A DNA stretch of 63,213 nucleotides, filler included, from Collodictyon triciliatum (taxonomy: Eukaryota), in assembly GCA_043381765.1 (NCBI GenBank). It is 5 parts of 5 records of this genome, joined end to end, with 100 filler letters (N's around TTAATTAATTAA, not from the genome) between each part and the next. Parts side by side here need not be neighbours in the genome. Positions count along the whole stretch, not along the records: positions 28,990 to 42,973 come from JBHJMP010002356.1; 4 more parts are not named here. The stretch is one strand, 5' to 3'. The stretch's first letter is position 1. Each line of letters begins with the position of its first letter. Positions 24,055 through 56,956 of this stretch are shown here, piece after piece. The notes below the pieces were generated by a model. It was not told the origin of the DNA. It worked only from the letters and a program-made list of their open reading frames with translations, and did not search any database. A program made the position numbers and the translations under genes.

Positions 24055-27000
24055 CTAAGAATGTTCTCTCTGGTCGTTTTCGAGAAGTCGTATAAATTCT
24101 TTCTACATTTTATATCACTTTTACAAACACATTTTGATTGACAAGAAAATAATGCATATTTGTATCGAAAGCCACAATATAATTAATTTTTTTTCCCGAA
24201 TCCCAAACCATATCAATCTTAGCAAACTCTTCATAGGTGAATTGTTCCAGGATCTTTGATACTTGTGGACGGACGTGTTGCGATAGCAAAAACATATTCC
24301 ACGACAATTTCACTATTTTTCGATTCAGGATTTAAAGAGAAGGAAGAACGATTCTGATAAAGTAGTGTAAGTAAAGTGAAATATGCTGAACGAAAGATTG
24401 TTGGCACATACGTCAACAACAAAGATATTTAGAATGAAAAAGAAAGCGACATATATCAGGGCATTACAGAGCAAATGGTGGCAGTCTCCAGGTTCAAAAT
24501 TTTGGATTCTCTCTTGGAAGCGATTTGCCTAATAGTACACGTTACTTTGTTTTTCAAATAAATACTATGCATACGAATTGATATTTTTTTTTTATTACGG
24601 TCTACTTACAAAAACAGGATTCGTGAGAGTGATGTCATCCAGCAACGATCCGTTTCCTGGTATCGATAATTATATTTTATTATTATTATTATTTTTTAAA
24701 AAAAAAACAACAACTAAGGTTTCTCAAGTCAAAGATGGAATTTGATTATAAAAATGATTTTATCTGGAAATATAAATCCCTGCAAGATAACTGGAGACAT
24801 AAAAAAAAAAAGAGACAAAGTATCGTCAATTAGGTATATGTTTGCAAAAGTCACCTGCTTGAGCGGGGTGGGTCACATCGTTCTGGAGTTCTGTTGAATT
24901 TTGTATTGTAATGAATTGATTCTCTTGCAAATTCTCTTCAAGTTTTTGTTGAGGATGTAAAGTGCCGATAGGTGCGTTCTGTGAGTTCGATTCAACGAGG
25001 GGTTCTACGTCTGCGGATGTGACTAAAATCTGATTGGTAGCCTGTGCCGCTTTCAGAGGTTCATTGGGAATATTTTCAGGTAGTAGAGGATTTATCTCAT
25101 CTTCTTTTGCTGTAGGCAAACTACTGAGCGGATGAGTTTCATCGCCTTTGGCTTGTTCATATTGTATTGTAGGGATATCACAAGCCATTTTATCTATTTG
25201 CTCGTTATGTCCAAGTAAATCCTTTCTGATCATTTGTGTCGAAATTGGAGGATACATATGGTTCATAGCAGGCTGTGGAATTGATGTATGAGGTATTGGG
25301 TCAGGTGGTTGATTTCCACGCTCGGGTTGATTCTTATCCAGATCTGACTGCTGCTGGTGTAGTATGCAAATCTTGAAATTATCCGTGAATTTAAAATAAA
25401 AATAAATAAGCAAAAGATAATAAAGGGAAGTTAAATTTTTTTTTTTTAAAAAAAAAGGCAAAAAAAATTATTTATATTGAACCTGACTTCATCTATGAAT
25501 TAAAAACGAAATAACTTGAGTATTTGTAAATACCATGTTGCCGATGGGTGCGATTTTATCAGCAGTTGATTCTTTATCACACAAATGTGCAAGTTGAAAT
25601 ATTTATCATGTTAGATTCAATGTTTTATTGTCAACTGAATTCAATACTGAAAGCAGTTATTGCATATAAATAATACCCTTCTGAACTGAGGATGGTACTT
25701 CTTTCGTGGTCGTCGGCTGCAATCTGGAAAAACACATTCCAATAAGAAAAGCGTGATTTGAGTTAATATAGACAACTACGAAGGCATGCTTTTTTTAGAT
25801 TATTTTTCTTTGGATGTATGATGGAAGGAGGTAAATAATGCACCACGATGAATCTCTCAGGATCGGGAAAGTATTTACAAAAGACGAATTACATGGGGGG
25901 CAGGGGATTTCCAATATCTGTGTGCTCTCCAATACTGCATTCGGGATCTTTCATATCGATTGTGCCTGGGTCAGGAATGTGTCTTAGCCAGAGGAAGACT
26001 TTTTCTCGTATTCCTTGCAGAATTAGTTGGACCTCTGTAAATAAATAAAGAATATATAAGAGGGTTTCTTTTAGTTGGACTGGCACAAAGAATATAGACC
26101 GACAATAAAATAATTCATATACGCATGAAGATTAGAAAGGATATAATATTATGTGTGCTCAACAACATGCATGTAAAAGAAAACCTGATCTAATTGATTG
26201 CATTCGGTATCAGCAATAAGTGTAAATATATCAAACAATTTACAATAAAAAGAGAATATATTAGTGTTTGGCCGGCTGGGTCTATTTTAAAAAGGACATA
26301 GTTCACGCATTAATTCGCATTTCATGAATTTTATAGAAGTACTGAATTATGCGCGGCTCTATATTTTGTCGCAGATTTGGCGGTTCTGCTGGTTCCGGTA
26401 TGGGTGGTGCAAGAGTCGAATGCAGAATACGATTCAACTAAACATCAACAAATGTTGAGACAGATATCACAAACTCTTAAAATTAGAGATAATAAGTACG
26501 TATCCAATCGATATTTTGTATGTTAGGGATATGAAAATTATAATCAGTTACCTCTCTAGATAATTTAAATGTGTTTGTTACATTCATATGTGAAATTTCG
26601 GAGATATCCGAAACCACACGGAGCCATCTCTCTGTGTTAACCGAATTATCATATTTTTTTCAATCAAAATATTCTTATGGTATCTTTCAGTTGCGTACGA
26701 TGTTCTAATTTACCATCATGCGTCGTTAATTTCCGTGGATCTATGTTTTTAATGTCGGGTTAGGGCATTTAACTTAATTCCTCATTATGAAAGTTTTTAT
26801 ATTCAATTTCGCCAATACCCATAGTCGTATGATATGCCCTTTCGAGAGTCTTTTCTAAAGCCATGGGTACTGAATCTAGGAATGATAAATTTAGCATTAC
26901 TGATCCCCAAAAAACATATCATCGGTGCAATTGGAATTTGGATCGAATTTTAAATTGGGCATGAAACTGAGAATACTATCGATTTAAGTGGTTAATGCCA

Positions 27001-28686
27001 ACTTACATCGAAGATTGATTTTGCTTGGGTTCTGTCTAGTTATTTCAACATCTTTATCAACGCCTAAACCAGAGCCACTTTTGAAAAAAAAAATAAGGCT
27101 GGTTAAAAGGTTGAATACTTTACTTGCAGAACAAAAACAAATTGTATCTCAATTTTTCTTTACTTTATAAATAATTAGATTGTTGCATAATAGAAGCCGG
27201 TTACTTATTTTTCTTCCGATTTTGAGCTTTTCTTGAAGGAGCCTTATGTTGTTTTGTACTTGCTTTGTTCAACCCAAGGGGTAGAACATCATATAAAATA
27301 GGGTTTACAATTCAATAAATTCATATATTTCTGTGTGAAACCAAATAAATAATTAATTTGTATATGATACCTTTCTTAGTTGGTGACTTCTCTCCACTTT
27401 TTAGTCTCTCAGTAACTTCATTATCTATTTGTGGTGGGATATCTGCAGTCTCTGTGGTCACTTTTGAGTTTGGCCCTTGAACCCCATCCAAAACCTCGGG
27501 TGGGTTTGGTCCAAGACATGATTGTGTGGTCCTGGCAGGCTGATCTCCAATATTTATTTGTTCAGTCGAGACGGCTGTGGTCGTTATAGTAGATTTATCT
27601 TGTTGCTGGTTGGTATTTTCTTCAATCTGCCTCGACTGCGATTGATTTGAATCTAGGGCTTTGGGTGTTATCATCGGTATATCATGTTTTTTTTCTGAGT
27701 TGATTAGTGGTGCAGAGGTGCAATCATTCTCAGTATTGGCATCAAGGGTCAGATTTCCATCAAGAATACGAAGCACACGAGAGTTTCCCACCTGCTACAG
27801 TATTAAATTAATATATAGATTTGTCGGTGATCGATGTTGATTTATTGAATAGCTTAAACAAAACTTAAGTAAAGAAAACAACGATAGAAGATATGTAGTT
27901 GAGGGCTTACTTTGTCGTTTTGTGCAGGATTCATTAGTGTATCATTCCTATTAGATATGCTCATTTCTATTGGTCCTTGCTTGGTTTCGAATTTTTTATT
28001 TTGGACGATACTGACGCCGCTCATGTCACCATCTTCTTCCTGATGTTTGGATACACTTTTCATGCATGATAGAGCACCATCTATGTGCATTTGGGGGGTT
28101 TCTGGAATTTTAGAGTGATCGTTGTGAACGGCGACCGAGTCTTGTAACAAAGCTGTTGTATCGCCAGAACATACATCTCGGTGCTTTGTTTGGCATTTTT
28201 GGGCCAATTCATCTATGAACTTTGGAAATCTTGGAACAATTATTCGAATTCTAGGCTCTGCCGACAAGAATGCCTCAAAGTTATCTTCAGTAGAGAACCA
28301 TTCAATCTTTCTGGAATTCAGTTCTACTTTGGACAAAGCGATTTTCGATTCAGAGTTTTGATGAATGCCTTCCAGGTTTGTACATGGTTCTTCTACGAAG
28401 GACTCACCTTGTCTAAATATGTATGTATTATCTTATTTTAAAAGAAAGTTATCAAATTTGGATAAATGTAAACTTTTTTTGTTTTACTAGTACGGATGCC
28501 AACTAACTAAGGTATCCCATTGGATCCCGATAATAACTCGATGATGAAATAGAGAAAAAAAAACATGACAATATATGATAACACCTTTTTAAAAAATAAA
28601 ATAAAATACGGGATTAAAATTTTGCTCTCAAGGGCAGTAGTTATATCGCTGGTAGCCTTTTCATCTCCCTTGATGTTTTTTGACTC
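24055..28686 (-). CDS. Uncharacterised multi-exon protein, largely low-complexity (Q/N/P/T/E-rich) with a few predicted ordered segments; 5'-truncated at the join
   Basis: A series of same-strand open exons bounded by GT-AG (for example 27854-28336, 27321-27791, 25889-26086, 24826-25461, 24110-24313). Tentative last exon KEFIRLLENDQREHS* ends at 24055. No family motif recognised. Confidence 0.55.
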
Positions 28687-28889: not shown

Positions 28890-28989
28890 NNNNNNNNNNN
28901 NNNNNNNNNNNNNNNNNNNNNNNNNNNNNNNNNTTAATTAATTAANNNNNNNNNNNNNNNNNNNNNNNNNNNNNNNNNNNNNNNNNNNN
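28890..28989. other. Artificial 100-bp scaffold join
   Basis: 44 N + TTAATTAATTAA (28934-28945) + 44 N; truncates the RNF213-like gene. Confidence 0.97.
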
Positions 28990-31370
28990 TGAGTAGTTGC
29001 AATGACGATACATTTGAAAGATGGATTAACTTCAAATGGCTCATCAGCTTGTGGACCAATCGGAAGATAACAATAGGATACATCTCCGACAGTAAAATAG
29101 TGCTGTTATATTTGAATAATTCGTTAAAACCTTTATTTGATTGATTATTTTTTTATTCAAGCCAAATATAAGAATAGCGCCAAAAATAAGCAAATCTACC
29201 AAGTTGAACAAGTCATAAAGACTTTCATATATTTGGGTCTGATTGACCAAGATAAGACGGTCTCCTCTCTCCATACAGTTTCGGACTTTGAGAATTGAAT
29301 TATATATATTGTACTCCTAGATTCAGAAAGTAAATAGGTACATTTAATGACACATATAAGCAAGAAAATAGCATCTAATAAAAGAGGATAGATGAAATTC
29401 ATGAACCTTTCGCTCGTCCGGAAAATCAGAGGAGAAAAATATTGTGGAGCTTTTGAAATCCAACATTCCGCATTGATAAAGATTTTGGAGGGCCGAACAA
29501 TCATCACTGGTAATCAACATTAGATGGCGACCCAGATTATCTTCATGATTGTCCCTTACCTACAAGAGCAGATTATGTGATACTTATTTTTTGTACCCTA
29601 ATGCATGAATTATCTCCTTATTACTCTTCCTTACCAGCGCTAGTGTAGGGATGTCGTATATGTTTCCACTCCCAAGTCCTTGAAAAGATTCCTGTACCCA
29701 TTCCATTTTTTGTCTGTCTAATCCGTTAATATTTCCTGATATACATTTTCTGCTGTTTTTGAGGTTGAGTCTATCTCCTTTGTAAATACTGTTCATAATG
29801 AAGTAGAAGTCTCTCAGTCCTTTTTTTTTAAAAAAAAAAATTAAGATTAGCTCCTCTATCAGAACTATATAAATTAATGAGTAAAAATCGACAAATAAAT
29901 ACGTTATTTCCTCACCAAAAAAGTGTTTTCCAATTTTTTCGTATTGCCCTTTGTATATATTTGCAAATCCTTCGGCTATGTGAGTAATGAAATCCATGTC
30001 CTATTACACCACGAAGTCAGATATAACTATCAAAAAGGAAAAGGAAAACAATAATACAAACAGATTCTGAATATCTTTGAATTCCAATGAGGCCTTTTGC
30101 CGTGGAAATGAGCTCGTTGACTGTAGGTTTTGGCCTGGTGACAAGAATCTGTAATATAATGGGTTAAGGAAAAGAGGCATAGTTGATAAGGCTATTTTGA
30201 AAATTTCTCACAGCTCTATTCATTTTTGCAGCATCCAATGACCAATTTGACAACCCAAGAAATCCAACTTCTTTGTCTTCAAAGAGCCAATGAAGAACCT
30301 TCAAAGGATTCTTTGGACTTTGCTCAGCAAGGCCAATCTATTTAATAAAAAAATGAGAAATTTAAGTATCCAATAATTTTTTTTAGAAGGGGTGGTGTAA
30401 AATGTCCCAAATTCACTATCTATCAACAATTCTACCTCATCAAGAACTACAACCGGAACCACGGAGGTATCTTCCTTCTTCTGCTGAGAAGCTCTTTCAT
30501 GGACTTCCATAATGCCTGTAGTATTTTTATCTTGTGAATAATGCATCTATATTCCAAAGGATTTTTTATCTTACAAATATCTAAAATCCAGACCTTCTGC
30601 TGTTGATTCTGGTGAGCATTGATGTGTGAGGAAAACCATGGAGCTCAATTTTGACAGATGTGGGAAGTTCCTTTTATTTTCTGGAACCAAATTTCTCTTC
30701 AGAATATGGAGCCCAAATGATTTAGAGCAGCCAGGGTCACCCACAATCTAATAGTCATTTTATAATATCAGATTTGAAATATGATTTCGTGGCCAAGGGC
30801 ACGCAATTTGTCGAAGTGAAAAATATAGGTTACATAGAGCTGTGTTTGGATTTTTTTTTTCGATATTGCACTTACAATTAGAGGTATTTTGTTCGAAAGT
30901 GAGTGAACCATCATGAAGAGATTCTCAGTTAGGGCAATATTCTTTGCTGTTCCGATGGGAAGGTCAAAATTTTCGAGCAAGTGCTCGGCATTTTGGATTA
31001 ACNNNNNNNNNNNNNNNNNNNNNNNNNNNNNNNNNNNNNNNNNNNNNNNNNNNNNNNNNNNNNNNNNNNNNNNNNNNNNNNNNNNNNNNNNNNNNNNNNN
31101 NNNNNNNNNNNNNNNNNNNNNNNNNNNNNNNNNNNNNNNNNNNNNNNNNNNNNNNNNNNNNNNNNNNNNNNNNNNNNNNNNNNNNNNNNNNNNNNNNNNN
31201 NNNNNNNNNNNNNNNNNNNNNNNNNNNNNNNNNNNNNNNNNNNNNNNNNNNNNNNNNNNNNNNNNNNNNNNNNNNNNNNNNNNNNNNNNNNNNNNNNNNN
31301 NNNNNNNNNNNNNNNNNNNNNNNNNNNNNNNNNNNNNNNNNNNNNNNNNNNNNNNNNNNNNNNNNNNNNN

Positions 31371-31467
<97 letters not shown>

Positions 31468-34400
31468 TCACTTTAGGTGAATGACGATACATGAAAAAAA
31501 AGAGAGCGGAAAGAAGGGAGCAGAACCTTGCGAAAATAGCTCACTAATCGAAGTGACCTCTCTATATCTCTCAGACTAACGAAACTCTCTTCCCTACAGT
31601 GGTGTCTAATATATGCTTGGCTCTTTACCAAAGCCTGAGCATACTGCCTATTGAGTCCAGATTCCTGAATGTGCTGGGATGTAACCATGAACTTGATGTA
31701 TTCTGCCTCGTCATCTCCATAGACAGACCCAAAGTCCCAGGCATATTGCGCGAGGGAAAGTGGTAGAGGATATACTGCATACACGAGGTCATCAAATGCA
31801 GTTCTAGCCTGCAAGGTTTGTATATGCGAGTCTATTCCAACTTTGGTTTTTGATAGTTGTCCTCCAGTGTCCTTCTTTCTATATGGATTACAGGCTGCTA
31901 TAAATGTCAAGTTTTTTGGTAGAGCTTCTCCTTCCATCGTGTGGTCACACATCATTTCTATAATTTGGTATAGTTGGTTAATTTTATAATAAATTACAAT
32001 GAAACGATATAAAGAGCGTACCTTTAAATATCCCCAGTAAAGTAGAGGTGTTGATTTCATCCAAAAAGAAAAAGAACTTGCTAGTTGGATTCTCGATAGC
32101 CTCATCTACAAGGATAATAAATGAACAACCAATTTTTTCGATTCAAGCTAATATATGGAGATGTACTTATCAGAGGCCTTAGTTCTCTCTCAATGTCTCC
32201 TTTTTTCGTTCCTCCTAAATTTTGAAATATATAGTAACTAAAATAAGTGCAAAATGTCGTTGTTCCTCCCCCTAATTTGGCTAATACAAATATATTATGA
32301 CGTATGCTAATTAAAGAATCTGTAAATTCAGAATAGTATACCGTGCACTCTCAACGAGCCGAAGCCTTTTCCTACAATCTTGGAAATGAATTCGACCATT
32401 CTTGTTTTTCCACACCCAGTCTCTCCCTGTGATATGAAAATAATTTTTAAAAAGGATTCATTTAGAAAATTGAAGTTTCAAAATTAATGGAATGGACTAA
32501 TGAGACGAACCACAATCAGGACGGGCAATCCAGACTTGATTCTAGAATATATTGACATGATTTTTGCTAAGTTGTCAGGTGTGAACACATAGTTGCTCAT
32601 CCCAACATCTCCTTTTGCTGCTTCAATTACTTTTTCTTCTTCATTAGGTTTTAAGCCAAAATATCTCCTGATTATTTTGAAATAAGACTTCTGGTCTCTA
32701 TAATTGAATATCTTTTCTGGTTCTAACCGAGCTTGAGTCATAGCAGAGTCAGTGGGACAGTCTCTACTAAAGTGAAGGATTGATATGGAAGAGCCTGTTC
32801 CGTCACCAGAATCGTCATTGAAAAGGGCAATAGGTGTTGGTGAAGTCCTCCATCTTTTTTGAACATCGAACATAGTTGACAAAGAAGCATGCCCTGTTTT
32901 TTCGACTGGTTCATTTGAAAAGCAAGGTGTACATATATCCTTAGCAGCCTCTACAATCCATTCAGAAATCTAATAAAGCGAAACTTAGTCATTCTAATTA
33001 TGTAAAATTTTTGTAATAGACGGTAAATATAAAAAACTTTCAAGACGATATAATATGGTTAGTACTACCATGTAAACTTAATGTTAAGGAAACATGATTT
33101 AGAGATAATATGTACTTTTGGTCGAAGTACTGGTGCTGGCTCATTCAAACTCGGGTCGAGGAACACGGTCTGGTCAAAGAACTCCAACTGGTCGAACATG
33201 ATTTTCACAAAATTGATTTTCTCACTTCGCGTTCTTTGAGGGAAAAATGCATCCAAAAGGTTCTGACACCTTGATTCAGCATCGTTAGTATTTTCTTTCT
33301 GCAATATGAATGGTGAAGAGTAAAATTAAAAATAAGCAGCTGATGAGAACATACTCTGCTGAATTTAGGTCTGGTCCATCCAAGTTGACCTTGGTTTTAA
33401 TCGAGCCATTTCCAGATGGTATTCTCATAGCTCTCAAGTATTTGCACACGTACTGAATCATATTGAATTTTTTGTCCAACCGAACTCGAACAAGGTCAGG
33501 ATTTTCGAGAGACACGTCCAGTTCAGTTTGCAAGGGAGACACTTCAAACAAATCAAATATACTGAGAGACCTTTCGAGTTGGATCGGTTCTGGGGTACTT
33601 GGTAACTCAAAAAATACCGTACACTCATTAGGGAATTGGAAGAAAGTATTATCAGATAAGAGGATTCTCTTCATGAAAAGAATCATAAACAGGTGAATGT
33701 TGCAGGTGAAATCTAGCGTGGGACCGAGATTAAAGTGTAGAGAATTATTATGGCTTCGAATTGCCTCTGAAATCTTTCTTGTAAGGTCTACCAAAGTTCC
33801 GCTGTACGACAATTGGATGGACTTAGTATCCTTGGCACCTTGCATGATTCTCAACTTTTTAATGTTGAATGTTTTTCCTTCACCTGCAGACAGAGTTTTG
33901 AAAACACGAATACGCAATTTTCTCTTTTCTAACAGGGGTACAATGCTGCCCTTGAGTCCATCGCGCAAATCAAAAGTTTCTTCCTTCTGCTCTTGGCGGA
34001 AATGAGACCGGATTACATTGTCATGTTCAGTGGGCAAAAATATGACAAGGCAAAAACTATGATTTTTGAATTTGGATAAGAGTTTTTCATACATCTCACA
34101 GAATTCTACTTGTATAAAGTGGGATAAATTTTCCGAGCACGCAACACAAAACATATCTTCATTATTATCCTTATCTTGTAGTGACCTTCTCAGGAAAAGC
34201 TCGACATCTTCTGGTTTTGTCTCATAGGTGCACAACAATAACTCCCACGGATTTGGAAGTCTATTGGCCACTTTAATGTAGAGGGACATCACATTGTGTA
34301 GAGCACGACTGTTATCTTGTACTCGAATGACGTTAGGTTTCCCCCGAATGATTGATTTATGATTAATCCTCCGTTCCTTATTGAGTTCTGTTTTTAGAGT

Positions 34401-37400
34401 AGATAGATATCCTAGCGCAGATGAAACGTTTTTTACGTCTTGTTCTAGAGTATTTTCGGTTGACATTTTCATTTTTCTTTGTGTTTCCGAATACCATTTT
34501 TCGAAATGCTCCTTATTTATATCTGCAACATAGACTGACAAGACTTCAACAATATTATGTCTGTCAATCTGATGACGAAGTATTGTTTCGCCGTCTTCCT
34601 TTGGAAAGCCAATATTTCTCAGCTGAATGAGCTGGTGTGTCCTAAAATAGTTAACCACTGGATTACTATCTCTGACTTCATCGATGAGTGACCTCCAACC
34701 GTTCAAATCTTCAGTATATTGTTGCTTCGCATCCAGCACATGTTTCAAGTCTGATTTGCATTCAATCTTTCTTCGTCCTATATAATACTCTGGATGGGAT
34801 AAGTCACAAAGCTGCATGAAGATCGGGCGTATATCGAAAATAATGTCTAGAATTTTAATAAATGCCTCGATTGATTCAATATCTGATTTGTTTTCTTCTG
34901 TAGAGCGCGCCATCCTTAAGCGACTACGAAGTTGGTCAATGTCTTCTTCTTTGTAAATTTTCGGACCAATAGGCTCTTTTATTTTTTCTGATGGTTCTAC
35001 TGATGTTGGATTAGATATAGAAAAGCTCTGAGACACTTGCAGATCTTCCTGGAAATCCTCTACCTCTCTTGGAAAAGCGAATAGAAAGTTCTTCTCTGTT
35101 TTGCTTTCATCAGAATTTTTAAAGACAAAGACATACGACTCTATAATCTTCCTCATGACTGTCACAGCTTTGGCCACAGGATTAGCTCGTGCATCCTTGA
35201 TAATGAACGATATTTCGTCCAGTCTGTCAGAAATGCTTCGGATGATTCCAATTAGATTCTCATATGTCGCTTTCTTCTCTTTTTTTGAATCTGAGGGATT
35301 CTCCTCACTCTGCACCTCCATAATACCAGCCAAAAACTCGTCGAAATTTTGTACATTTCTTAACTTCATGACTGGAGCCAGTTGATATATGGCTTGTCTC
35401 AATTTTTTCAATAGAGCAAGGTATTTTTGGTCATCAACTTTGGCAAAACATAATTCAAATAGTTCTGCAAGTCTTCCTTGATGCTCTTTATGAATATCAA
35501 TCAAAAATTTCAATAAATCTTCGGTCAGATGTTCGAGGAGAGAAGAAATATAAGTAAAGTTTCGAATTTTCGAACCGAGTTGCTTCGTCTGCACTATAAT
35601 TTGAGAAAGCGAGGGGCCCTGACTTCTCAGAGTCAGTTGTGATGTAGAAGTTTCCTCCATAGTCCGGTAGAGCTGATAAAGCTGTTCCATTTGTCTGAAA
35701 GTATCTCCTTTTTTAATATCCGCTTGGATGTTTAATGCTGTTATGATGTTATCAAGCCCAGAAATAAATCCAACAATCCCTTTAATCGTAGCAATACATT
35801 CATAAACATCGAAAATCTGATCATCGTGGATTTGGATTCTGGCTCCCCTTGGGGAGTTCTCACATATTAAGCGGACATTGTCCATGAACTCCGACCCAGA
35901 TTTAACACCTCTTTGAATCAAGTGAAATAGGAAAGAAATAGATATATACCCACTTCTCATCAACTCCAAAAACTCTCCAGATTCTTCCAAACAAGGTCTC
36001 ACTAAGTGTGCCATCAAATCTGCCTCAGAATCGATTGGAATGTTTGATGTTATATCTGTCGTTTTTGTTGGTCCAATCACAAGTTTTCGTAACTCGATAT
36101 CCCATAGGAATTGGAATATGACAGACTTTGATAGTTGAAGCAAGATTTTCGAATGGCTTTTCAGTTCCCTGATTTCAGTATACTTTGAAATTATTTCCAT
36201 CTTCGATTTTTCATCTGCCAGTAGAACGACAATATGCTCGTTTAGTTGGGCAAAATATGGCTTCTGTATTAACACTGTAAACAGGGAAGTCTTGAATAGT
36301 TCGCATGTAGATTGCAACTCCTCGAGGTCCTTACAAAACCTATTGAATGTTGTGGATACCTCCGAGCCCGCACCATAAAACCCAACTACTTGATTGCAGA
36401 GTCTCGATAAGCGTTTTGCAACGCCAAGAGCCAGAGAACCTTGCAATAGTTCCTCTTTGATTGTATTTGAAACGGCATAAATAGGCCTGGCTATGGATTG
36501 GAATTCAGGAAGTGTAGATTGATTAGTTTTCAGAAACTCAACCCTTTCTCTCCACTCTCCAGCAGAGGTAAAGAAGGCAACAGGGTTTTCTGGGACTGGA
36601 ATAGATTTGATAACAACTCCGGCGATGTTCAGACAGAATTTGGACATTCTTGGATTCTTTAGTAAAATTCATAATATTTAGTATATTTGATTACAATTTA
36701 AGAATAACAATATTGGTTTTGATTTTATCATAAATTCTTACCCGAATAAGGCTGGAACACAATTGATTTAAATTTGGTATTCTTTTGCACAGCGTTTCAG
36801 CAAAGATTTTTGCTGCTTCAATTATATTTTCGTTAAAGATATCTACTTCGGTGCGATACAGAGCATCAAGTAGACTCTCAGCATCCATTTTATTAGCAAC
36901 ACCAATAAGCATATTATAAACGTTAGCAGCACCAGTAGATTCCACGATTTCTAATCGCTTTGCCTCCAAAATAAGCTCAATGAGGATGATTATTTTCTTT
37001 GCAGATGCTGATTCTTCAATACGTCGTTGGAGAATATTGACGACCTTCACACTCGTTGATGGCGAACAGCTGTTGCAAATAAGGCAGACGATGGATAACA
37101 TATTTTTTGGGTCTCTGAAACAGTTCTTTCTGAGTAGCTTCATGATGGTATACTCGTCTGAAAATGTATCAGCGACGCTCTTTTCTTTAAAAATTGAAAC
37201 ATATTCTGCCATCTGTAATTCCTCAGGCTCATATTCTAATAGGAGCAAAACGGCATCCTCCCTAATATCATATCTGAGAAGAATTCTAACGATACCCATT
37301 AATTTCCTTTTGTTCTTTGACGAGTTCAGCCTTGCGATGGACGACCAGAATTCCTTGACAGTTCCTGGTCTGTGTCCTCTTTCTCCAGATTTTAGAGACT

Positions 37401-40400
37401 TATAAACTTCGGAAATATCTAAATATAATGCAAATATGTTTGATTTATTAAATTCCATGTATTCAACAATTATTGTACGTAAAATCTTAATAATGGTTAA
37501 TCGTATAAGTATGCAATTGGAAAACCTTCTGAGCTCAAAACTTCGACGAGAAAATCCGGGATAGCAATAGGAGAAAGTATGCAATTAAGCTTCAAAACAT
37601 CTAAAATGTGCATTCGGGCCTCCATGTTGCCAGTATCGTATTGCTTGCAATCATCTCTGTATATAAAGAAATCAGTGGCCTTGATATCTCCCTGGTGAGA
37701 AGAAGAGACACATGATTCGAAAGAGAAATTAAGAAGCCAAGCAAGTATCGGCCATTCTGTGCTTGCATCCTTCATTCCTTGTTCAACTATGCTTTTTAGT
37801 GCAAACAAAAATTCCCTCAGGTTTTCTCTGGTGATGTGCTTGGGGATTTCTGACAAAATAAGCTCTTGTCCTCGCGTTATCGCCCCACCAAGAATGTCAA
37901 TGAATTTGGTAGACAAAATTATATTTCGAGCTTTTTGCGCTAGGAATATCAATAAGAAAGCAAGTCTGCAATAGTCTTTTTTATCTTTTGCAAGAGATCG
38001 AATATTTGAGATTGTATGATGTTCATCAAGTTTCCTCCTACATACAAATGCCAGTGCGTGGATAATATTGACAACAGTCTGAGCAGAATTATTTTTGACA
38101 AGGAAGAGTGGGTTCCTTCCTTCATCAACAGGAGAGAGGTAGCAAGAAACAATATTCTCCAATATCATATCGAATCCTTCATCAGATGAGTACCCTACAG
38201 AATTTGAAAAGAAGCCTGATGGGACATCCCACGAGAGATCAGGATGGAATATAAACGCTGGCTTACCATCATTATATCTGCATTCGTAATTAAATTTTTT
38301 TGACTTGATAGGATGGTTTGTTATTTCGAACGTATAGGTGCACGAGTAATATTTCTCAATTAGGAAATAGTAAACACCAGGAATAAAAGATGGCATCAAT
38401 ACCTTTCTTTTTTGGTCATATTTTTTTGCTTCCCGGTAATTTCCGGATAATTCCGTAATACAATAAGCAAATATCTGATTTTGGAGAAATGCCTTCGGGA
38501 AAGGTTCTTTCACTGCTACAAAGACAACAACAGTGTTACTGGACATATTGGACTGGTATCCTAATGTAACTGAACTAACACTGGACGACTCGTATGCTTC
38601 TACATCCTCTTTAAGTTTCTGGATAAACTTCGGTGGGTCAGCGACCAAATCCATGGGAAACTGGAGCCATCTTCCGGTTGATATTATTTCGACAAGTCCT
38701 TTGAACAACGGTATGGATTTTTCTTTGTTAATTTGTCCGAAATCGACTATGGGGCTTTGATATCTGGTATTGTACTGGTGGATTGGAGTTGCCTTTCTGA
38801 AACTCACCCCGCTGTGGAATATAAACCTGCTACTCTTGGGGTGATGTGCATAGTGAAAGGGTGATTGCGATTGACGATTTTCACCTTCCCAATTCAAAGA
38901 GAACCTATATTTCATGCTTTCAGCTTTTGGAAAAACACAGTAGAACAAACCTTTTTCGAGCTTGATAAGCGTGCATTTTTTTTCGGTCTTTTCGTTCATG
39001 GTGATTAGATTGATTGAAAATCCCGGGAGAGGTCTTCCTTCACAGTTTTCTTCAATGGCAAGAAAAATGAACAAGGGGTCTTCTCTCAGGCCATACTCTT
39101 TTTCCATATTGAATCCGACAGACTCTTCATCATTTGGCTCAGAGAAAGTATTTGTTTCATCAACTTGAGCAGATGTTTGTTCTGGGGAAGTGATAGAAGA
39201 CGATTCAACAGCCACCCATTCCGATGAAATCGATGACAAATTTTCTTGACGTGATTGCAAGTCATCAGTACCACGTAATATGTGACTATTTTCTTCATCC
39301 TTAGAAGATACTGCTGGTGCAATATGGAATATAGTTTGCTTTGCGGGTGGGGATGATTGAAGAACGTCATGTGTGATTTTTGGTGCTGATTGCGGGCTGA
39401 TTGGTGGTAATTCCACAGGATTTGATTCGGGAATAGAGTCATCTCTTTCTTCTTGATTCCTGTCTGCAGTAGAGTTGGGAGACGGGGTTTTTACTTCATC
39501 AAGATTTGCTGCTGGAGAGTTGCTTGGTGGGACATGTCCTGCTTTTGGGATTCCTTCGATCTTCTCCACCATATTCGGGATATCTGAGAATAAATCCTGC
39601 ACTTCCTTTTCCGTCAAGCTCTTCAAATCACCTTTATGGTAGTAGCCTCTGTATATCAGTATGATGGACTGTTCAACAGGAACACCCGCTTCCTTCCATT
39701 CACACACCATTTCGGACAGATTACAGAGCAAAGTTCGTGGTGCATCATAATGCAGTATTCCGTGAAAGGACGATATATGCGCGCGCACAACATCTAGTAG
39801 GCTCAAGTCTTTGAGTCCGTAAGAATTTAGATCACTTAACAGACCTTGTAAACCAAAAACCTGCAAGCCTGTGTTCAGGCTAGGGACTACATTAGGAATA
39901 AATGATTTAAAAGCTGAAGCCTTAAATGGAACTTCCATCTCCAAACGGGTTTGCACCAAGTAGCCATCTCCAATAGAATATTTCAACAACTTTGATTCAA
40001 CTTCTTCCTTATCCGTAGAGGATGGCCCGATTCCCATGTGAACGAATATGTGTGATATCCTCTTTAATTGAAGAGATCGGTCTCTCCACGGGTTGAACCC
40101 TTTTGCCTGAAAATGGAACATTTTTCTAACTTGAGGACTTAAAGACAATTCTAAACACAGCTCATCAAGTTCATGTGAATTGCAAATTGAAAGGACAAAA
40201 GGAGAACTGAATCCCTTTCTAGATAATGCCAAGACTTTCTCAGAATCCAGAAATGGAAAGAAATCGCTCCAATCAGGTTCCTTTTATTATTGATTTTTTA
40301 TTATAAGAATTTCAAGAAAATTATAGACTATACTCAATTAAAAACTTGAAAATGAAATGATTTCTATTCAAAAGGAATGTTTACCTGATAATCACCATCT

Positions 40401-42401
40401 GTCCCGTATTTCGTCAATGGGTTGCCGAAGTCGGTGTTAAGATGTGGAAAGAGTTTCCCAATTGTGGTTTGTCTAATCATTTTCAAAGGGTCGATATTGG
40501 GATATCCTCTGTAAATCAATTCCGGACTCGAAGGTAGCAAGTTTAAATAGCTCCAATAGTTTAAGGAGGCTATTACAGCATTCAAACGTTCAACTTCACA
40601 GCGTCTTAATTGGTCTCTGATGACAACATGGTGAATATTATGGGCTAATGTAACCAAATTGGTGATATCTCCATCAATTGGCGAAGAATTCATGTTGAGC
40701 TTTTGAATACCAAACTTCCTCAGTATATCTATCCCATCGATTTCAAACGGAATTGCATGGACTATGAGAGCCTTTTCATCAAATGGCATACCCATGAAAG
40801 AGTATAATTGAATGAGCTCTCCATCTTTAATAGGGATGTCAGTTGGCATACTACTCAACATGAAAGCAAGTTTATCAGGGGATATACCATGTCTAATAAA
40901 ATGCGGTATCAAATGCCTCAATGGTAAAGGAAGAGGGGTCCACACTTTAATTAGCTCGTATTCACGATTAAGCTGTTGTTGGGTCAGCCCTATTGAGTAT
41001 AGATAAGTGCCAAGCTCCAGTAATTCTTCCGGAATAAGATCGATGAGATGATGAGGTTCGTACACGCCATAGCTAGAGAGGGATGGAAATGATTCGGCTC
41101 GAAGAAGGGAGTATCTCACCTAAGTTGCAATAAATTTGAAGGTGGGCGTTATTTGGTTAGTATGCAAGGTTATCTTTTTCTTCTTGATAAATTTATTCAT
41201 AGCGTGACATCAAAGTTACCATGAAGATGTTCTTAAATATAAATCAATTTAATTACTGTGGCGCTTGGTGGCGTGATGAAGGGATTGGGTCCAGGAGGAT
41301 TGGGTCCAGGAGTCACTATAGATTGAGATATCAGTATTTGAGACATAGCACCAACTTCATCTGCATCCATCGTGGGGAAGAACTTAGAGATTCTCTCCAA
41401 AGGCAATGCAGGGAGGTCTTTTGGATGAAAGTATCCACGTGACATCAACATGCGGATGCAAGAGTTAATTCCGCTAGTTGACCAAGCCTTGGCAGAGTCG
41501 GACAAAATCATCAGTTTCTTGATTGAGCCAGCAGAACAGTTTACAGCTCGGAGACGATCCAAATGTGATTCGTTAATCGAAACTAAGCTAGCGATGCTAT
41601 GGAAATCGAGTTCACTGATTTTTTGACACAAGTATATCCCACAGAATGATTTCATAAAGACGTGATCGGATTCAAATACGGAGTGATTCATTGTTTTGGT
41701 TTCGAGGACATCTAGGCTGATATTTGCGTTGTCTGCTTTTGCTAATGCGTGTGTGAGTCCGTCACTGAATGGTAGCCCCGGGGCAGCGCCCGTCACACGG
41801 CCTGTCACGTCTCTCCAGCTCGCCATGCGGTACCGAGTGATTAAAAATATAGAGAGGAGAGAAGCCTGCGGAGATGGAACTCCGAAACGATGGCATTTTG
41901 CACAGAGATCAGCAATTTTGTACTTGACCGCTTCAGAGCCTTGCAACTGTCTGTGTACGAGGAGCATTTCCTCTGGAGTGAAGCGGACAAGGTCACCGGG
42001 AGTGGTGATTCCATGATAGTTGAGGATTCCAATGTCGGCGATGCTCAACTCAGGAAGCAGCTGCGCCCAACTGATATCTCCAAAGAGATACGGTGGTGGG
42101 AGCGGAGGGTTCATCCCTCGAAGGGTGGAAGGCGGGTTTGAGATCTGGTTGCTGGGTTGTTTTAAGATCGTTGGTTGAAGTTTGATGGAAGAAAACAGGT
42201 GGTTTTACACTCGGTAGTGAGGTGCTTAGTCTTGGTTTTGCGTTTTTTTTTAAAAAAATAAGGAAAAAATAAGGGAAAGGAAGGGGATACAAGGGTGAAA
42301 GGCCGAAGCCTCTTTCTTTTTTGCATGTTTTCTATAAGATCAGCAACGTGATTGTCGTGGGTGTGGCGCTGTGAGGATCGCGATGATTCTTTGTTCCCCA
42401 T
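28990..42401 (-). CDS. RNF213: RNF213/mysterin-like giant dynein-type multi-AAA+ ATPase; N-arm, stalk and AAA1-AAA5 visible, C-terminal part lost in the join
   Basis: Motifs in RNF213 order: LPNPWELLLCTYETKPEDVELFLRRS (AAA1), SAGEGKT (AAA2), YVFTPDNLAKIMSIYSRIKSGLPVLIVGETGCGKT...FLDEINT...FIAACNPYRK...LVYAVYPLPLSLAQYAWDFG...FVSLRDIER (AAA3), NIALTENLFMMVHSLSNKIPLIIVGDPGCSKS...HQCSPESTAEGI...VVLDEIGLAEQSPKNPLKVLH...SNWSLDAAKMNRA...FFGLRDFY (AAA4), CMERGDRLILVNQTQIYESLYDLFN (AAA5). Inferred start MGNKESS at 42401. Confidence 0.92.
31371..31466. repeat. (AAT)n microsatellite in an RNF213-like intron, next to gap 31003-31370
   Basis: Directly visible. Confidence 0.95.
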
Positions 42402-42731
42402 GTCTTTGTGCACATTCAGAGATCGCTTTTGATTGATTTTAAACACTAATTTGCAACCAACGGGAGTCGAGCAGTGAACATAGTCCATATGTTGACAGGG
42501 TATATGTACGGGGGTGAATTCAAGATGATGTCAATTCACCATAGTTTTGAAACCCATTAGTGGACGGAACATAAATTGTTCTACCTCGGAATAGATTTTG
42601 GAATATTGCTTTATCATATAAGTGTATTTTTGATTATATTATGAATCAGAATTCGTCTCAATAGCAAGAGTATAATTGACAACGGAGCAGCATAATAATA
42701 TCCAGATTTGAAAATGGTTTGAAGGGGAATT

Positions 42732-42973
42732 TGACCCGAGATATTTTGATTGGTTTTTTGTTGCGAAAATAGACTCGGCAGTAGGACAAACACGACGCCC
42801 ATGGGTCATGAATCAAAATATACTTTTCAACGACGACTTTGTGAATGAAACCCTCGTAACGTTGGAGAAAGCGATTGACCACACGGATAATCGTACAATA
42901 AACAGTAGGCCAGCAGCTGAAACTTGGACTATCGTCAAAGAGGCTATCATTGTTTCAGCCAAGAGACACTCCG
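42732..42973 (+). mobile_element. Probable L1/Tx1-clade non-LTR retrotransposon ORF2 fragment (end of endonuclease and tower region), running into the join
   Basis: Intronless frame ...RRPWVMNQNILFNDDFVNETL...AAETWTIVKEAIIVSAKRHS resembles the W-x-x-N-x-x-L-L-x-D-x-x-F...W-x-x-x-K pattern that follows the APE endonuclease in L1 ORF2. Its position at a contig end is typical of repeats. Short, so tentative. Confidence 0.45.
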
Positions 42974-43073: not shown

Positions 43074-48913
<5,840 letters not shown>

Positions 48914-51900: not shown

Positions 51901-53519
51901 TGATAGCAGGCTAGGAACGTTAGAGTCGTGCATGTCACAGAGTTGCGCTAATTGCGTGTTGCATGCTCAAACTCCGTGTGCAAAAGACTATTACTTCGCC
52001 TCTACCTCGCTCCATTACAGGATCTCGAACCGTCTTATTAGTAGGTTGTAGTACTCACGGGTCGGTGGCGGCTGGTATCCTGATCGTCGGCGCGTCTCGG
52101 TGCTAATCTGCGTCGCAGGGGATGTGGTAAAGTGTCCTTCTCGCTCGCTGGCTCGGCTGCGTCGGCCTTCTCGTTTTGTGTTCGGTCAGTAGGCGTTCCA
52201 TGGGGCAGGGCTGTGGCGCCAGTCTCCTGGTGGGCGGTCTCGTCCTTCTCAGCATCGCTCTTATCAATCACTTGCTTCCTTGCTTCCTTTTTTTTTCTGG
52301 CTTCTGAGTGAGGCGGGGGAAGAGGATGGCAAGGGGCTATTGTATCGCACTTCTTTGCTGTGTTTCTGGAAAATGGACTGTGCAGAGGCGAAAGGAAGCA
52401 ATAAAACTTAAATAAAGCGCACTTTGATGGGTATGATTGCTGATATGACTATTATGGCAAACGAAGACCACACCCAGGTTTCGATTTATGCTAATTCTGG
52501 AATCTGATGGGCGAGTGCATTCCATGATTGATGAGGGAGGAACCAAAGCGCCTCAGCACTCGCATTGCCAGAGGGTTACTGCGATTGGGCGCATTACGCA
52601 TCGTTTGTTGAATCGAAGTTTTGTGCACTGACTTGTTGGTCTACTGCTTCTTTAAGTCACTTCTGCTTTCCTGATGAAATGCCCAAATGCCTGTAGACAC
52701 AGAAGGCAGCCACCTCCGTATATCCAACATTGGATTGCTTTCGAAATGGTCAAACCAGAGACAAGCTCGAGAGCCGCTGCATTCCCTGTCGTTTTCCTCT
52801 TCATCAGTCTTTGGTGACAAATGTCAACTCAATACGAAGCGATGTGTTGTTTTCCGGTTTGACTGTCCATTTTCTTCTGTTTTTTAATGACGAATTCGAC
52901 CGAGACATGGCGACCTCGAGTTTCTCGTTGCGTCTTGTGCAAAGACTATCTTGGATATTGAGTTATACGAGAGATATCATGCATTTTCTGTTTTTGATAT
53001 TTTATATATGCTACGTGGCCTTAAACGCTGAGTGGATGAGGTGTTTTTTTTTTTTATTCTGTACATCATCAACAAAAGCAGGGTAGTAATTGATTGAAAA
53101 TGATAGCTGATTATGCAAAGGAGCCATGTGGGTGCCATGGATTATGTTTGTCACGCCCTTGTGGATAAAGTAGTTGACTTAGCATTGAATGCTGAGATGG
53201 AATCCTGTGATTGTGTTGTAAGGGATGTCCAAGTGGATTAAGTAATGCTGTTTTCACAAAACTCAATGACGCGTTACTGATTTGCGCTTCTCCGCAGCAT
53301 CGACCTCCTGGACTATTCAGCTCATCTTTTCCTGCCAAGTTGCTTTGCTTAAAACTATACAGGAGTACGTCGCATCCATGTTCATGTTTTATGCACAAAG
53401 TCTTGAAGCCTTCAAGCAAAGTTACGTTGCCCAATTTTTTAGGCGCGCTGCCATTCAACACTTTTTTGTGTCCTATTTTTTATTCACCTTTTGCTTATTA
53501 AGAGGGATTTGCAATCAAT

Positions 53520-54669
53520 ATTGTCTCGCCCGATGTAAAGCGCAAGCTGCGACCCGTCGAAGGCTTTGCAAGTTGCAGCCAGTTCTTCTGGTACCAACAC
53601 TGGCGCGGAAAACCCGAGAAACACGCAAGTCTAGGAAGACCCGTGCAAGGAAGCCGCCTGCAAGTCTGTCTGAGCGGACAGTATTTTTGCACGGGGTCGA
53701 GCAAGTCGTTTACAACAAGAACAAGGCCCGCAGACTCACATATGTGCTCGCCTCCTTCTTGAAAGCGAACAAACTTTGGGAAGAGTCCATCCAATTGCGC
53801 TTACCGGACAGCGAAGGCCTTTGACTGATCGCCTTCCGCACTGCAGAAAACGCCCGAAAGCTTCTGGAGCTGAAGCAGGTAAGTTTGAGCGATATTACGA
53901 TCATCTTTAGCAGAAGTAAACCAACAAAGACCTCGGTGATGCTCTACCAACTACCGCTGGACGTGTGGCCGCAACTCCTTCGCGAGGAGCTGAAGCCGTT
54001 CAGACCGACGCATGTGGATATCAAAAGGGACAAAGGCTTCTTCGCAGACACGGCCGTGGTGAAGCTTCTTTGCCACAAGAACCAGCTCCCTGCAAAGTTT
54101 ACGGTCATGGGTAAAAAGCGTCCAAAGCGCATCCTCACAGAGCGTTCGCCAGCCGCGAACAACGAACGACAAGTAAAAGCCCCGCAAAAGAATACACCTG
54201 CCAAGCAGACAAGCAGCAACGGGGTCAAGGAAGACAAGGTCAGACAACAACAGAGTCCGCATGACTCACAGCAGATACGCGCATACAGCGACAGCGACGA
54301 TAACACGGAGGAAATCTCGGTTCCTCTTCAGAATCCTCGCACTCGAGCCCTCCACCACCAACACCGGAAAAGCTCGCACATCGCAAGACCCAAGAGCAGC
54401 GCATCTCCAAACCCCGATAGAAATCCCCCCTTAAACTACCCATTCAGACTGACGTGAATATGGTTAACATAGGAGGCATCAGGGCAGTCTTCGTTACTTA
54501 TCCGAAAGGATACTCCAAAGCGAAGCCAACGCAAGAATCAGCGCCCACCAAAGATAGTCCGTTTATTATTCCCCAGCCCGTCGCACCGAGAACCAAGGAG
54601 CAAGAGCAAACAGCACAAGTCGAATCCAAGCTTGGAACTTCACACACCAAAGACAGTCCGAGCAAGCAG
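53520..54669 (+). mobile_element. Probable degenerate non-LTR retrotransposon ORF1-like sequence (tandem RRM-like segments plus a low-complexity tail) with an in-frame stop
   Basis: GC-rich and intronless, unlike neighbouring host genes. ORFs 53282-53824 and 53885-54457 share one frame broken by TGA at 53822-53824. RTVFLHGV...LIAFRTAENARKLL...TSVMLYQLPLDVWPQLLREELKPF resembles RRM-type ORF1. Ends at a contig join. No zinc knuckle is seen, so tentative. Confidence 0.45.
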
Positions 54670-54769: not shown

Positions 54770-55545
54770 AGCATGAGTCTCAGCCTTTACTTCAGCGTGG
54801 GTTTCAGCATGCGTTTCAGCATGCGTTTCAGCATGCGTTTCAGCGTGGGTCTCAGCGTGGGTTTCAGCGTGAGTTTCAGGTTGCGTTTCAGCATGAGTTT
54901 CAGCGTGAGTTCCAACCTTTTCTTCTGCATTGGTTTCGGCGTAAGTTTCAGTATGGGTTTCAGTATGAGCTTCAGCGTGGGTTTCAGCATGGGTTTCAGC
55001 GTGGGTTTCAACCTTCTCTTCAGTATGAGCTTCAACCTTCTCTTCAGCCCTTTCTTCAGTATGAGTTTCAGCGTGGGTTTCAGCGTGGGTTTCAACCTTC
55101 TCTTCAGTATGAGTTTCAGCGTGGGTTTCAGGTTGAGCTTCAGCATGAGTCTCAGCCTTTACTTCAGCGTGGGTTTCAGGTTGAGCTTCAGCGTGGGTTT
55201 CAGCGCGAGCTTCAGTATGAGTTTCAGCATGGGTTTCAGCATGGGTTTCAGCATGGGTTTCAGCATGGGTTTCAGCATGGGTTTCAGCATGGGTTTCAGC
55301 ATGGGTTTCAGCATGGGTTTCAGCATGGGTTTCAGCATGGGTTTCAGCATGGGTTTCAGCATGGGTTTCAGCATGGGTTTCAGCATGGGTTTCAACCTTC
55401 TCTTCAGCATGAGTTTCAGCATGAGTTTCAGCATGAGTTCCAGCGTGGGTTTCAGGTTGAGCTTCAGGTTGAGCTTCAGCGTGGGTTTCAGCATGAGTTT
55501 CAGCCTTTACTTCAGCGTGGGTTTCAGGTTGAGTCTCAACCTTTG
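54770..55545. repeat. Coding 12-bp minisatellite (unit GCTGAAACCCAT on the minus strand) with variant units
   Basis: Visible period-12 repeat. Perfectly homogeneous core cagcatgggttt at about 55225-55392, with more diverged units (AEEK, AEVK, AQPE) on both sides. Confidence 0.97.
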
Positions 55546-56956
55546 CTTCAATGTGGTCTCCACCCTTCGTCATACCACTGTCTTCCTCTCTGCGGCTTTC
55601 ATCCTTCTCTTGTGAGCTATGCTTGTCTAAGTGCCCTTGACCTGTTGCAAGAGGATCACGTGTTGATTCCTTTGGATTGTGAACTTCTTGCACACTCTGA
55701 TCATCATGGTTGTCTTTGGCTTGAGATACATCTGAGGCTGAATTATAAGGTATTGTATCATTTTTCGCCTGTTCGACATGTTGAGTCACTTCTCCTGGCT
55801 GGTCCTGTGATTTGATCTCGGCTCCAGTGTTTGAATCCGCTGATTCAATTGTATCAACTGTTTTTGTTATAAGGGAGAAAAAGTTTTGTGGATGTTAAAT
55901 GACGAAAGATAATGTAATAACAGTCTGCAACTCGCCTGGCAGGACCACCGCAGTTAATATGAATAACGAATGTATCAATATGGAGGATTTTCAAGTAGGT
56001 GTAATATATTTTACTTTCGATCAATATGTTGGAGTGTGAAGTAACGGAACCCGTTGGGAAATGAAAAGAAGAAAGAAGGTAGCTGACATAGGTTGGGAAC
56101 ACAACTGACCTGGCATAATGTGTCGACTTTGTTATTTGTGCCAACTATGTAATTAGAGTGCTATAGCAACAGGGCTTCAAGCGACTCGCTAAAGGGAATG
56201 ACACGCGTGCTCTCTTGGCGTAATTCGAATACTGCAGCAAGGGGGAATAAATGATCAGTAAATGGTATGCGGAAGAGAGAAAGCAGATACGTTAGTCTTG
56301 TGGTTTTGGACAGCGACATGAAACCCCTCAGGGTTAAACTTCACTTAAATGAACGAATAAAAAAAAAAAAAAAGGAAAATTATGAACTTAGCGCCCTGGT
56401 AAATTAGCAAAAACAATGTATTATGAATAAGAGAACGAAGATAGAGGGAGAAAGAAAAAAAAAGCCTTCGCGACTTAGGCGAGCAACCTAGAGAGAGACG
56501 GGTTTATCGAAGTGAAAGGGAAGAAACATTATAAAATGGAACCATTTACGTGGGAAAACTTGTAGTTTTTTTTCCCAAGAACCGAAAGAGAAAAGAATTA
56601 AAAGGGAGAAAGAAGCTACGAGAGAGTTACTCTGCTTCAATTGCAGAGACATAAGACAGTAATTCATTCCCCTTGGACAGGCTTTCCGCCTCCCAGACTC
56701 CATATTCCGTACTGCAGTCAGGCCACCTCTTTGTTTCAGCCTTCTGCGAAAGCCGCCCACAGAACGCAACAGCTTCCGACAAGAGGACTCTCCTGCCCAA
56801 GGGCACAACGCCAAGAAGCTTCTTCCTTCTTGCCTCGCGATCTTCCCAGAACCTTGCTCCTCGAATCAAAGCCCCCTTCCACACAACACTTTCTTGGGCC
56901 TGCGAAACCAAGTCTGGCTCGGCTTCACAAGCGCACGGCTTTATCCACAAGTCCAT
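54770..56956 (-). CDS. Uncharacterised protein with a long (AETH)n His/Glu-rich tetrapeptide repeat; 3'-truncated at the join
   Basis: A large exon from about 55857 to the gap reads ...GGDHIEAKVETQPETHAEVKAETHAETH.... A probable first exon MDLWIKPCAC...SAIEAE (56956-56631) has a GT donor. Linkage through small intermediate exons is tentative. Confidence 0.6.

Follow-up and report, generated by a model that had tools for sequence, protein, structure and literature searches.

An intact and expressed RNF213-family gene with a triplicated N-terminal module in the flagellate Collodictyon triciliatum

Introduction

Mammalian RNF213 (mysterin; PDB 6TAX, 7OIK, 8S24 and 9JW1) combines a helical stalk, a dead AAA1, an AAA2 that keeps a P-loop without a Walker B motif, active-type AAA3 and AAA4 units, the signature insertions IR3 and IR5 and a beta-sandwich ahead of the stalk. 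In the mouse protein, ATP binding at AAA3/AAA4 activates the transfer of ubiquitin to Cys4462 of the RZ finger (PMC12075652; 10.1101/2021.05.10.443411), and in the human protein the beta-sandwich position is occupied by a CBM20 domain, around which positive selection has been described in simians (PMC11549300). RNF213 has been called conserved in vertebrates (PMC7311170) or in protochordates and vertebrates (PMC6400562). Searching by title and start of abstract, with subscription journals outside the search, we found no paper on a non-animal RNF213; databases already name such homologues RNF213-like ("R213A-like"), and the Pfam RZ model reaches many of them. The family is widespread outside animals.

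Here we describe a gene of this type in a 63,213-nucleotide stretch of DNA (the window, filler included) from the Collodictyon triciliatum assembly GCA_043381765.1. Collodictyon feeds with a ventral groove and pseudopods (PMC3351787), and the Diphyllatea are heterotrophic members of the CRuMs (PMC11603278; PMC5793813). The gene almost certainly belongs to the RNF213 family, and what is new in it is a triplicated SAM/HhH-like head. Our best overall explanation, for which we see an even chance, is that it encodes a diphylleid (CRuMs) RNF213-family ligase with a role in defence or in the response to vacuole damage. The features of the locus are as follows.

42114-28990, minus strand: visible part of the whole RNF213-family gene, 21 exons and about 3,600 codons (open spliced model)
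42114-41257, minus strand: exon 1, about 260 aa, encoding module copy A (Z scores of 9.4 with copy B and 8.0 with copy C)
41119-40385, minus strand: exon 2, about 240 aa, encoding module copy B (Z scores of 13.8 with copy C and 5.2 with the Diphylleia copy; intron 2 spliced in read set X1)
40280-39546, minus strand: start of exon 3, module copy C, with a SAM-like five-helix part (40280-40071), a middle part without assigned fold and an HhH/NusA-AR-like part (about 39743-39549)
39545-39101, minus strand: low-complexity Pro/Ser/Glu-rich linker (sequence; predicted coil)
39089-38799, minus strand: putative immunoglobulin (Ig)-like beta-sandwich at the RNF213 CBM20 position (low-confidence model)
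36656-33355, minus strand: large exon with helical stalk/linker, degenerate AAA1 (from 34343) and AAA2 (PDB matches, motif alignment, complementary DNA)
32426-31527, minus strand: AAA3 on four exons, with Walker A, Walker B, sensor I, IR3 and sensor II (PDB matches, motif alignment)
31003-31370, no strand: assembly gap of 368 N next to an (aat)n microsatellite, probably concealing an exon of about 70 codons
31001-29811, minus strand: AAA4, with Walker A/B, sensor I, arginine finger and sensor II (motif alignment)
29559-28990, minus strand: AAA5, degenerate, with the IR5 insertion, cut by the join (motif alignment)
28890-28989, no strand: artificial scaffold linker between 44-N runs, the other side of which is a different contig

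Domain organization and family membership

The spliced model comprises 3,196 + 408 codons with zero stops, after one intron correction based on RNA, and reads from an assumed start codon at 42114, about 7.8 kb upstream of the point where the original prediction, which had described the AAA core, ended. Its 19 complete introns (56-146 nucleotides), placed by hand on the minus strand, are GT..AG throughout and keep the frame, while a twentieth spans the microsatellite and the gap. Minus-strand translation yields long frames at 42204-33288 and then short pieces down to 28990, on a host contig (28990-42973) that is AT-rich, intron-rich and eukaryotic. Alignment to the Diphylleia rotans protein P0020 (EukProt EP00002 P020237; 4,950 aa) indicates that the gap probably hides about 71 AAA3 codons, equivalent to P0020 residues 2581-2651. 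The window as a whole consists of eukaryotic contigs with four joins, each an artificial linker between 44-N runs; the gene ends at one of them, inside AAA5, and tblastn with five full-length relatives detected nothing in the window outside the gene.

Along this model, the AAA1 region has no Walker A/B, and AAA2 retains the P-loop SAGEGKT (33890-33872) without a Walker B. AAA3 carries the Walker A GETGCGKT (32426-32403) and the Walker B FLDE (from 32067), and AAA4 the Walker A GDPGCSKS (30741-30718), the Walker B VLDE (from 30447) and the arginine finger KMNR. In our alignment each motif falls in the same column as in Xenopus RNF213 (P0139) and eight other relatives, and AAA1-AAA5 are collinear with the Xenopus protein, AAA6 lying past the join. 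Both signature insertions are present, IR3 being a little shorter than its Xenopus counterpart. Judging from P0020, where it is about 19 residues beyond the aligned end, the AAA5 arginine that would serve AAA4 also falls past the join. The N-terminal helical stalk/linker matches the mouse RNF213 stalk in weak pieces and shows 25% continuous identity to P0020 from model residue 1845. The Walker A/B motifs in AAA3 and AAA4, the AAA2 P-loop and the degenerate AAA1 that had been read from the sequence are thus all real, and the AAA1-AAA4 pattern matches that given for mouse RNF213 (PMC7311170). What did not hold is the description of this pattern as animal: the motifs occur in nearly all long relatives, protist, fungal and animal, where patterns were matched, and therefore the pattern is one of the family, not of animals.

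Searches against the PDB lead to the same family, in agreement with the RNF213/mysterin-type core that had been proposed. The large exon matched RNF213 chains only (5 sequences, E 2e-6), the AAA3 exon nine human and mouse RNF213 sequences (E 3.5e-14 to 2.8e-13) plus four chance rows, and P0020 matched RNF213 at E 6e-114. Dynein and midasin chains were absent from the matches of the large exon at E<=1 and from those of the AAA3 exon and P0020 at E<=10 (21 rows for P0020). The AAA4 and IR5 exons alone, both too short as queries, gave no RNF213 match in the PDB.

The window protein differs from mammalian RNF213 in having an alanine in the LVYRV motif in place of the conserved arginine. We considered this alanine as a lineage novelty and dropped it: among the 122 matched sequences (168 scanned), arginine is found in 84 and alanine in 9, 38 are non-arginine, and the alanine is shared with 8 others.

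Expression and splicing

Four read sets were aligned to 31480-42970 (of 12 runs, X1 accounted for 0.24 of the words, and X2, X4, X5 and X7-X11 for small shares), and the splicing evidence is confined to this interval, the nine AAA4-AAA5 introns (28990-31479) lying outside it. The sets X1 and X3 are recorded as 'RNA?' only; their contigs skip introns and end in what we take to be the template-switch adaptor. The complementary DNA (cDNA) contigs are 97-98% identical to the window with zero indels, and the roughly 2% of letters that differ indicate that the X1 and X3 contigs come from related strains. Five of the ten introns in the interval were seen spliced: introns 33115-32970, 33354-33270 and 40384-40281 in X1, intron 3 (37525-37419), whose boundaries are set by RNA from X1 and X3, and intron 1 (41256-41120), joined in one X6 contig whose short side has only 22 letters. 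A spliced cDNA contig (34872-32743) covers part of the large exon, X12 covers a single 31-letter spot, and the four AAA3 introns are unbridged in these reads. The gene is intact, spliced and expressed.

Contigs from X1 and X3 also lie over 42766-42970, upstream of the assumed start, with a loose end of 200-255 letters; they may belong to an adjacent transcript or to a 5' exon missing from the model.

That the locus is instead a midasin, a dynein, a pseudogene or an assembly artefact is barely conceivable. The Pfam models AAA_5 and AAA_7 (dynein-related) match relatives weakly and the assembly has gaps, but these points are set against the RNF213-specific IR3 and IR5, an AAA1 without Walker A, the PDB matches, the open frame and the cDNA contigs without indels. 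The original prediction had itself raised a placement with midasin or dynein, and a frameshifted or unexpressed gene; no such chain was retrieved in the PDB searches, and the frame is open and spliced.

The triplicated N-terminal module

The most distinctive part of the gene, and one outside the portion originally described, is its N-terminus. The first 775 residues consist of three copies of a module of about 250 aa, whose limits coincide with exon 1, exon 2 and the first part of exon 3, separated by phase-0 introns. These copies stand in place of the mammalian N-terminus. Pairwise Z scores were computed against 300 shuffles, none of which (0/300) reached the score of any pair, and 15 control pairs gave Z at most 2.5. 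The single copy in Diphylleia P0020 scores Z 5.2 with copy B, as listed, and only 1.8 with A and 2.3 with C. In a leave-one-out design, profile searches put the withheld copy at the top of 313 targets in 4/4 cases. Elsewhere, a word-index search found the module in none of 4,267 candidates of 130-457 aa, a PDB profile search gave two chance matches only, and Foldseek with the head models gave nothing significant.

An AlphaFold model of copy C, computed from an alignment with copies A and B, has a mean predicted local distance difference test (pLDDT) score of 59, rising to 70-88 over residues 1-60 and 64-77 over residues 191-240; the fold prediction refers to copy C alone. Among the 50 structural matches listed for residues 1-70, 26 are titled SAM (best Z 6.8, root-mean-square deviation (rmsd) 2.7, 68 aligned). 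The predicted five-helix bundle of about 65 residues resembles the SAM domains of EphA2, Odin, ASK3, SARM1, LEAFY and tankyrase, with rmsd 2.2-3.4 Å over 56-68 residues for most top rows, and differs from them in having no match at the sequence level. As all Z scores are below 8 and Foldseek is null, the assignment is coherent but moderate: the module appears to start with a SAM-like domain and end with an HhH-like one. If this is true, the head holds at least six domains of SAM/HhH fold.

These folds also bring in another reading, in which the head binds nucleic acid through HhH/NusA-AR or RNA-binding SAM units and the protein is an antiviral ligase triggered by nucleic acid, rather than one that coats a surface. 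Residues 180-244 of copy C match the NusA AR (Z 6.4) and the polymerase beta HhH (Z 5.5), and the first domain also matches Rad51-N, BAF and Y-family polymerase domains. Nevertheless, most first-domain matches are protein-binding SAMs, the Z scores all stay below 8, and Pfam returned no SAM or HhH match for eight head segments at E<=10, nor SAM for whole exons. We consider a nucleic-acid-binding head quite improbable.

After the linker, the predicted beta-sandwich (pLDDT about 55) resembles CBM26 (Z 7.3), CBM41 (Z 7.2) and the CBM20 of STBD1 (Z 6.9), tied with other Ig-like folds, and the single-sequence fold of exon 3 has a mean pLDDT of 36. The region has a homologous stretch in P0020 (Z 5.1) and no sequence match to Xenopus RNF213.

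Phylogeny and distribution

The AAA3 exon matches 962 cluster representatives at E <=0.001, of which 30 proteins were looked up. In agreement with a non-animal host, the closest named relatives are a Collodictyon triciliatum fragment (EP00001 P023624, P0018; 84% identity), followed by Diphylleia rotans, P0020 being 40% identical over AAA4-5. Further relatives come from Soliformovum, which we take to be Amoebozoa, Flectonema and Sulcionema (presumably diplonemids), Nonionella and Reticulomyxa (presumably forams) and Acaulospora (presumably Glomeromycota), as well as from molluscs and Xenopus.

A maximum-likelihood tree of AAA3-AAA5 included 100 of 168 proteins, 68 being dropped for short coverage, with 22 cluster siblings left out earlier. 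The window protein branches with P0020 and then with its paralogue P0021 (P032595), each with a Shimodaira-Hasegawa-like approximate likelihood ratio test (SH-aLRT) support of 99, and these two and Collodictyon P0018 are its sister sequences. The group sits within an unresolved set of 45 rows (SH-aLRT 100) together with forams, diplonemids and the vertebrate clade. The tree has neither root nor outgroup; it therefore gives no dates, but it does support descent within diphylleids.

P0020 has the head module and the beta region in common with the window protein, but one module copy against three here; the N-terminus of P0021 is of low complexity and did not match the module. We found no publication on P0020, P0021 or P0018. 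The foram, diplonemid, Amoebozoa, Glomeromycota and mollusc proteins share the AAA core and the motif pattern, and that of Flectonema carries an RZ finger, but none of them matched the head module in the leave-one-out profile searches. A word-index search with the large exon gave one match among 2,912 candidates, and a metagenome scan for close relatives one distant locus (L001, 38% identity) among 178 candidate stretches. A viral scan with P0134 found no match, which, as it relied on exact-peptide patterns, is weak evidence.

Several of the relatives have features of their own. P0069 (4,357 aa) is RNF213-like and deposited under a Candidatus Paceibacterota genome bin, probably as eukaryotic contamination. 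P0099 (2,877 aa), which groups with Acaulospora in the tree, joins an RNF213-like core to an N-terminal protein kinase domain. P0126, P0134, P0065 and P0157 are RZ-bearing RNF213-like proteins of 3,660-4,718 aa on environmental contigs of 12-20 kb, lengths that indicate intron-poor genes or transcripts of eukaryotes.

The probable ligase end and possible function

As the original prediction stated, the E3 module cannot be seen in the window because of the join: the C-terminal ~1,900 residues of the protein lie past it. In the Diphylleia orthologue P0020, PF20173 detects an RZ finger at E 5e-14, its cysteines and histidines spaced as in animal RZ fingers, and the protein matches Xenopus RNF213 around this finger at E 7e-14; the RZ match in P0021 is weaker (E 7e-5, below the cut-off). 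Unlike mammalian RNF213, the Diphylleia orthologue has no detectable RING: Pfam gave no RING match in P0020, P0167 or P0021, in a search whose control worked in two of three animal-clade proteins (found in P0066 and P0079, missed in Xenopus P0186). From this orthologue, the window gene quite probably ends in a predicted RZ ligase module without a RING.

The alternative, an RNF213-type AAA motor whose C-terminal effector is different or dead, draws on the position of the C-terminus past the join, on several long relatives without RZ and on the kinase domain of P0099. We judge it improbable, as the RZ motif is complete in the closest full-length relative and a weaker match to it occurs in the other Diphylleia paralogue.

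With an RZ ligase end, the gene could work as follows, the mechanism being drawn from mammalian RNF213 (PMC7311170; PMC12075652; PMC11549300). An N-terminal head and stalk would lead into a dynein-like ring of six AAA units, two of which (AAA3 and AAA4) would have working ATP sites, and past the join into an RZ-type ubiquitin ligase module that lacks a RING, as in Diphylleia. The variable beta-sandwich and the stalk may recognise a foreign or damaged surface, either a microbe or a ruptured food vacuole, on which the SAM/HhH-like head would help molecules gather. ATP binding at AAA3/AAA4, by analogy with the mammalian protein, would switch on ubiquitin transfer, first onto the RZ cysteine and from there onto the target, and the resulting ubiquitin coat would route the surface to autophagy. 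By this comparison with mammals, the role in defence that the original prediction had suggested for a phagotrophic protist, or one in vacuole damage, might apply with roughly equal chances for and against, while a part of the modelled head in assembly is possible yet doubtful.

Variation between strains bears on the beta-sandwich. Among the 40 differences analysed out of 156, in a comparison that has no AAA-core control, amino-acid changes account for 11/12 in the beta-rich region, 3/7 in module C, 6/10 in the stalk and 7/10 in the linker, and the beta-rich region differs from module C and the stalk together (9/17) with a Fisher p of 0.04. The beta-sandwich thus varies between strains mostly by amino-acid changes, a hint only of an echo of the selection around simian CBM20.

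Several points weigh against a defence ligase. The point estimate of the ratio of nonsynonymous to synonymous substitution rates (dN/dS) in the beta-rich region, 4.5, does not differ significantly from neutrality (P 0.10), and the limits of the strain comparison, its 40 differences and missing control, count in the same direction. Intron 4, the link between the stalk-AAA exon and the upstream head and beta parts, is unbridged by RNA contigs, and the ligase end itself is past the join. RZ was found in only 4/11 and 5/11 of the long relatives scanned, some of them partial, and not in P0037, P0043, P0062 and P0069 (4,357-4,870 aa), which makes an RZ end likely, not certain, for the window gene. 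In addition, mammalian mysterin stabilises lipid droplets through its ATPase and ligase activities (PMC6400562).

This last function suggests a housekeeping role for the same RZ-type ligase, at lipid droplets, food-vacuole membranes or other organelles and with no action against microbes, to which expression in ordinary samples, under no known challenge, would also conform. The two Diphylleia paralogues, the lineage-variable head and the amino-acid-rich variation of the beta region fit, weakly, a receptor under pressure, and we regard the housekeeping role as somewhat unlikely.

A broader proposal can be made, which we hold to be speculative and rather improbable: RZ-type RNF213 ligases would be an ancient, eukaryote-wide means of cell-autonomous defence that predates animals, the diphylleid tandem array of at least six SAM/HhH domains would polymerise and so account for cooperative growth of the coat, a step unexplained in mammalian RNF213, and the CBM-like domain would diversify in response to prey bacteria or giant viruses.

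An intact, expressed CRuMs homologue, together with RZ-bearing relatives in other supergroups, points to ubiquitin tagging of the RZ type having arisen much earlier, and suggests a later addition of the RING. A culturable flagellate would offer a way to ask whether the ubiquitylation of lipopolysaccharide predates animals, and the triplicated head may be a case of a sensing end remodelled by exon duplication. The weight of these points is limited, as homologues are already in public databases, the ligase end is outside the assembly and the defence role is inferred.

Other features of the window

The contig next to the RNF213-family gene contains an intron-rich gene for a leucine-rich-repeat membrane protein (43204-48820, minus strand; Pfam LRR), which also has repeats rich in cysteine and several predicted membrane segments. 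On the neighbouring contig at the other side, and outside the RNF213 gene, low-complexity Q/N/T-rich exons with no Pfam match lie at 24829-28432 (minus strand). A minus-strand frame at 612-1184 has a signal-peptide-like start and the motif HSHCDPGW, which we take to resemble glycoside hydrolase family 38 alpha-mannosidase, and plus-strand exons at 2732-4560 with the motifs DYVSGHS and 'DAGLAAW' presumably resemble a vanadium haloperoxidase or PAP2 protein. The GC-richer long frames at 53270-54669 (plus strand), which include an RRM-like region and a stretch rich in cysteine, are possibly, as an impression only, a retroelement gag-like gene. At 54770-55894 (minus strand), a 375-codon open frame made largely of the four-residue repeat ETHA runs into a join, and the exons at 60964-62500 (minus strand) presumably encode a nucleotide-sugar transporter, probably of the UAA type.

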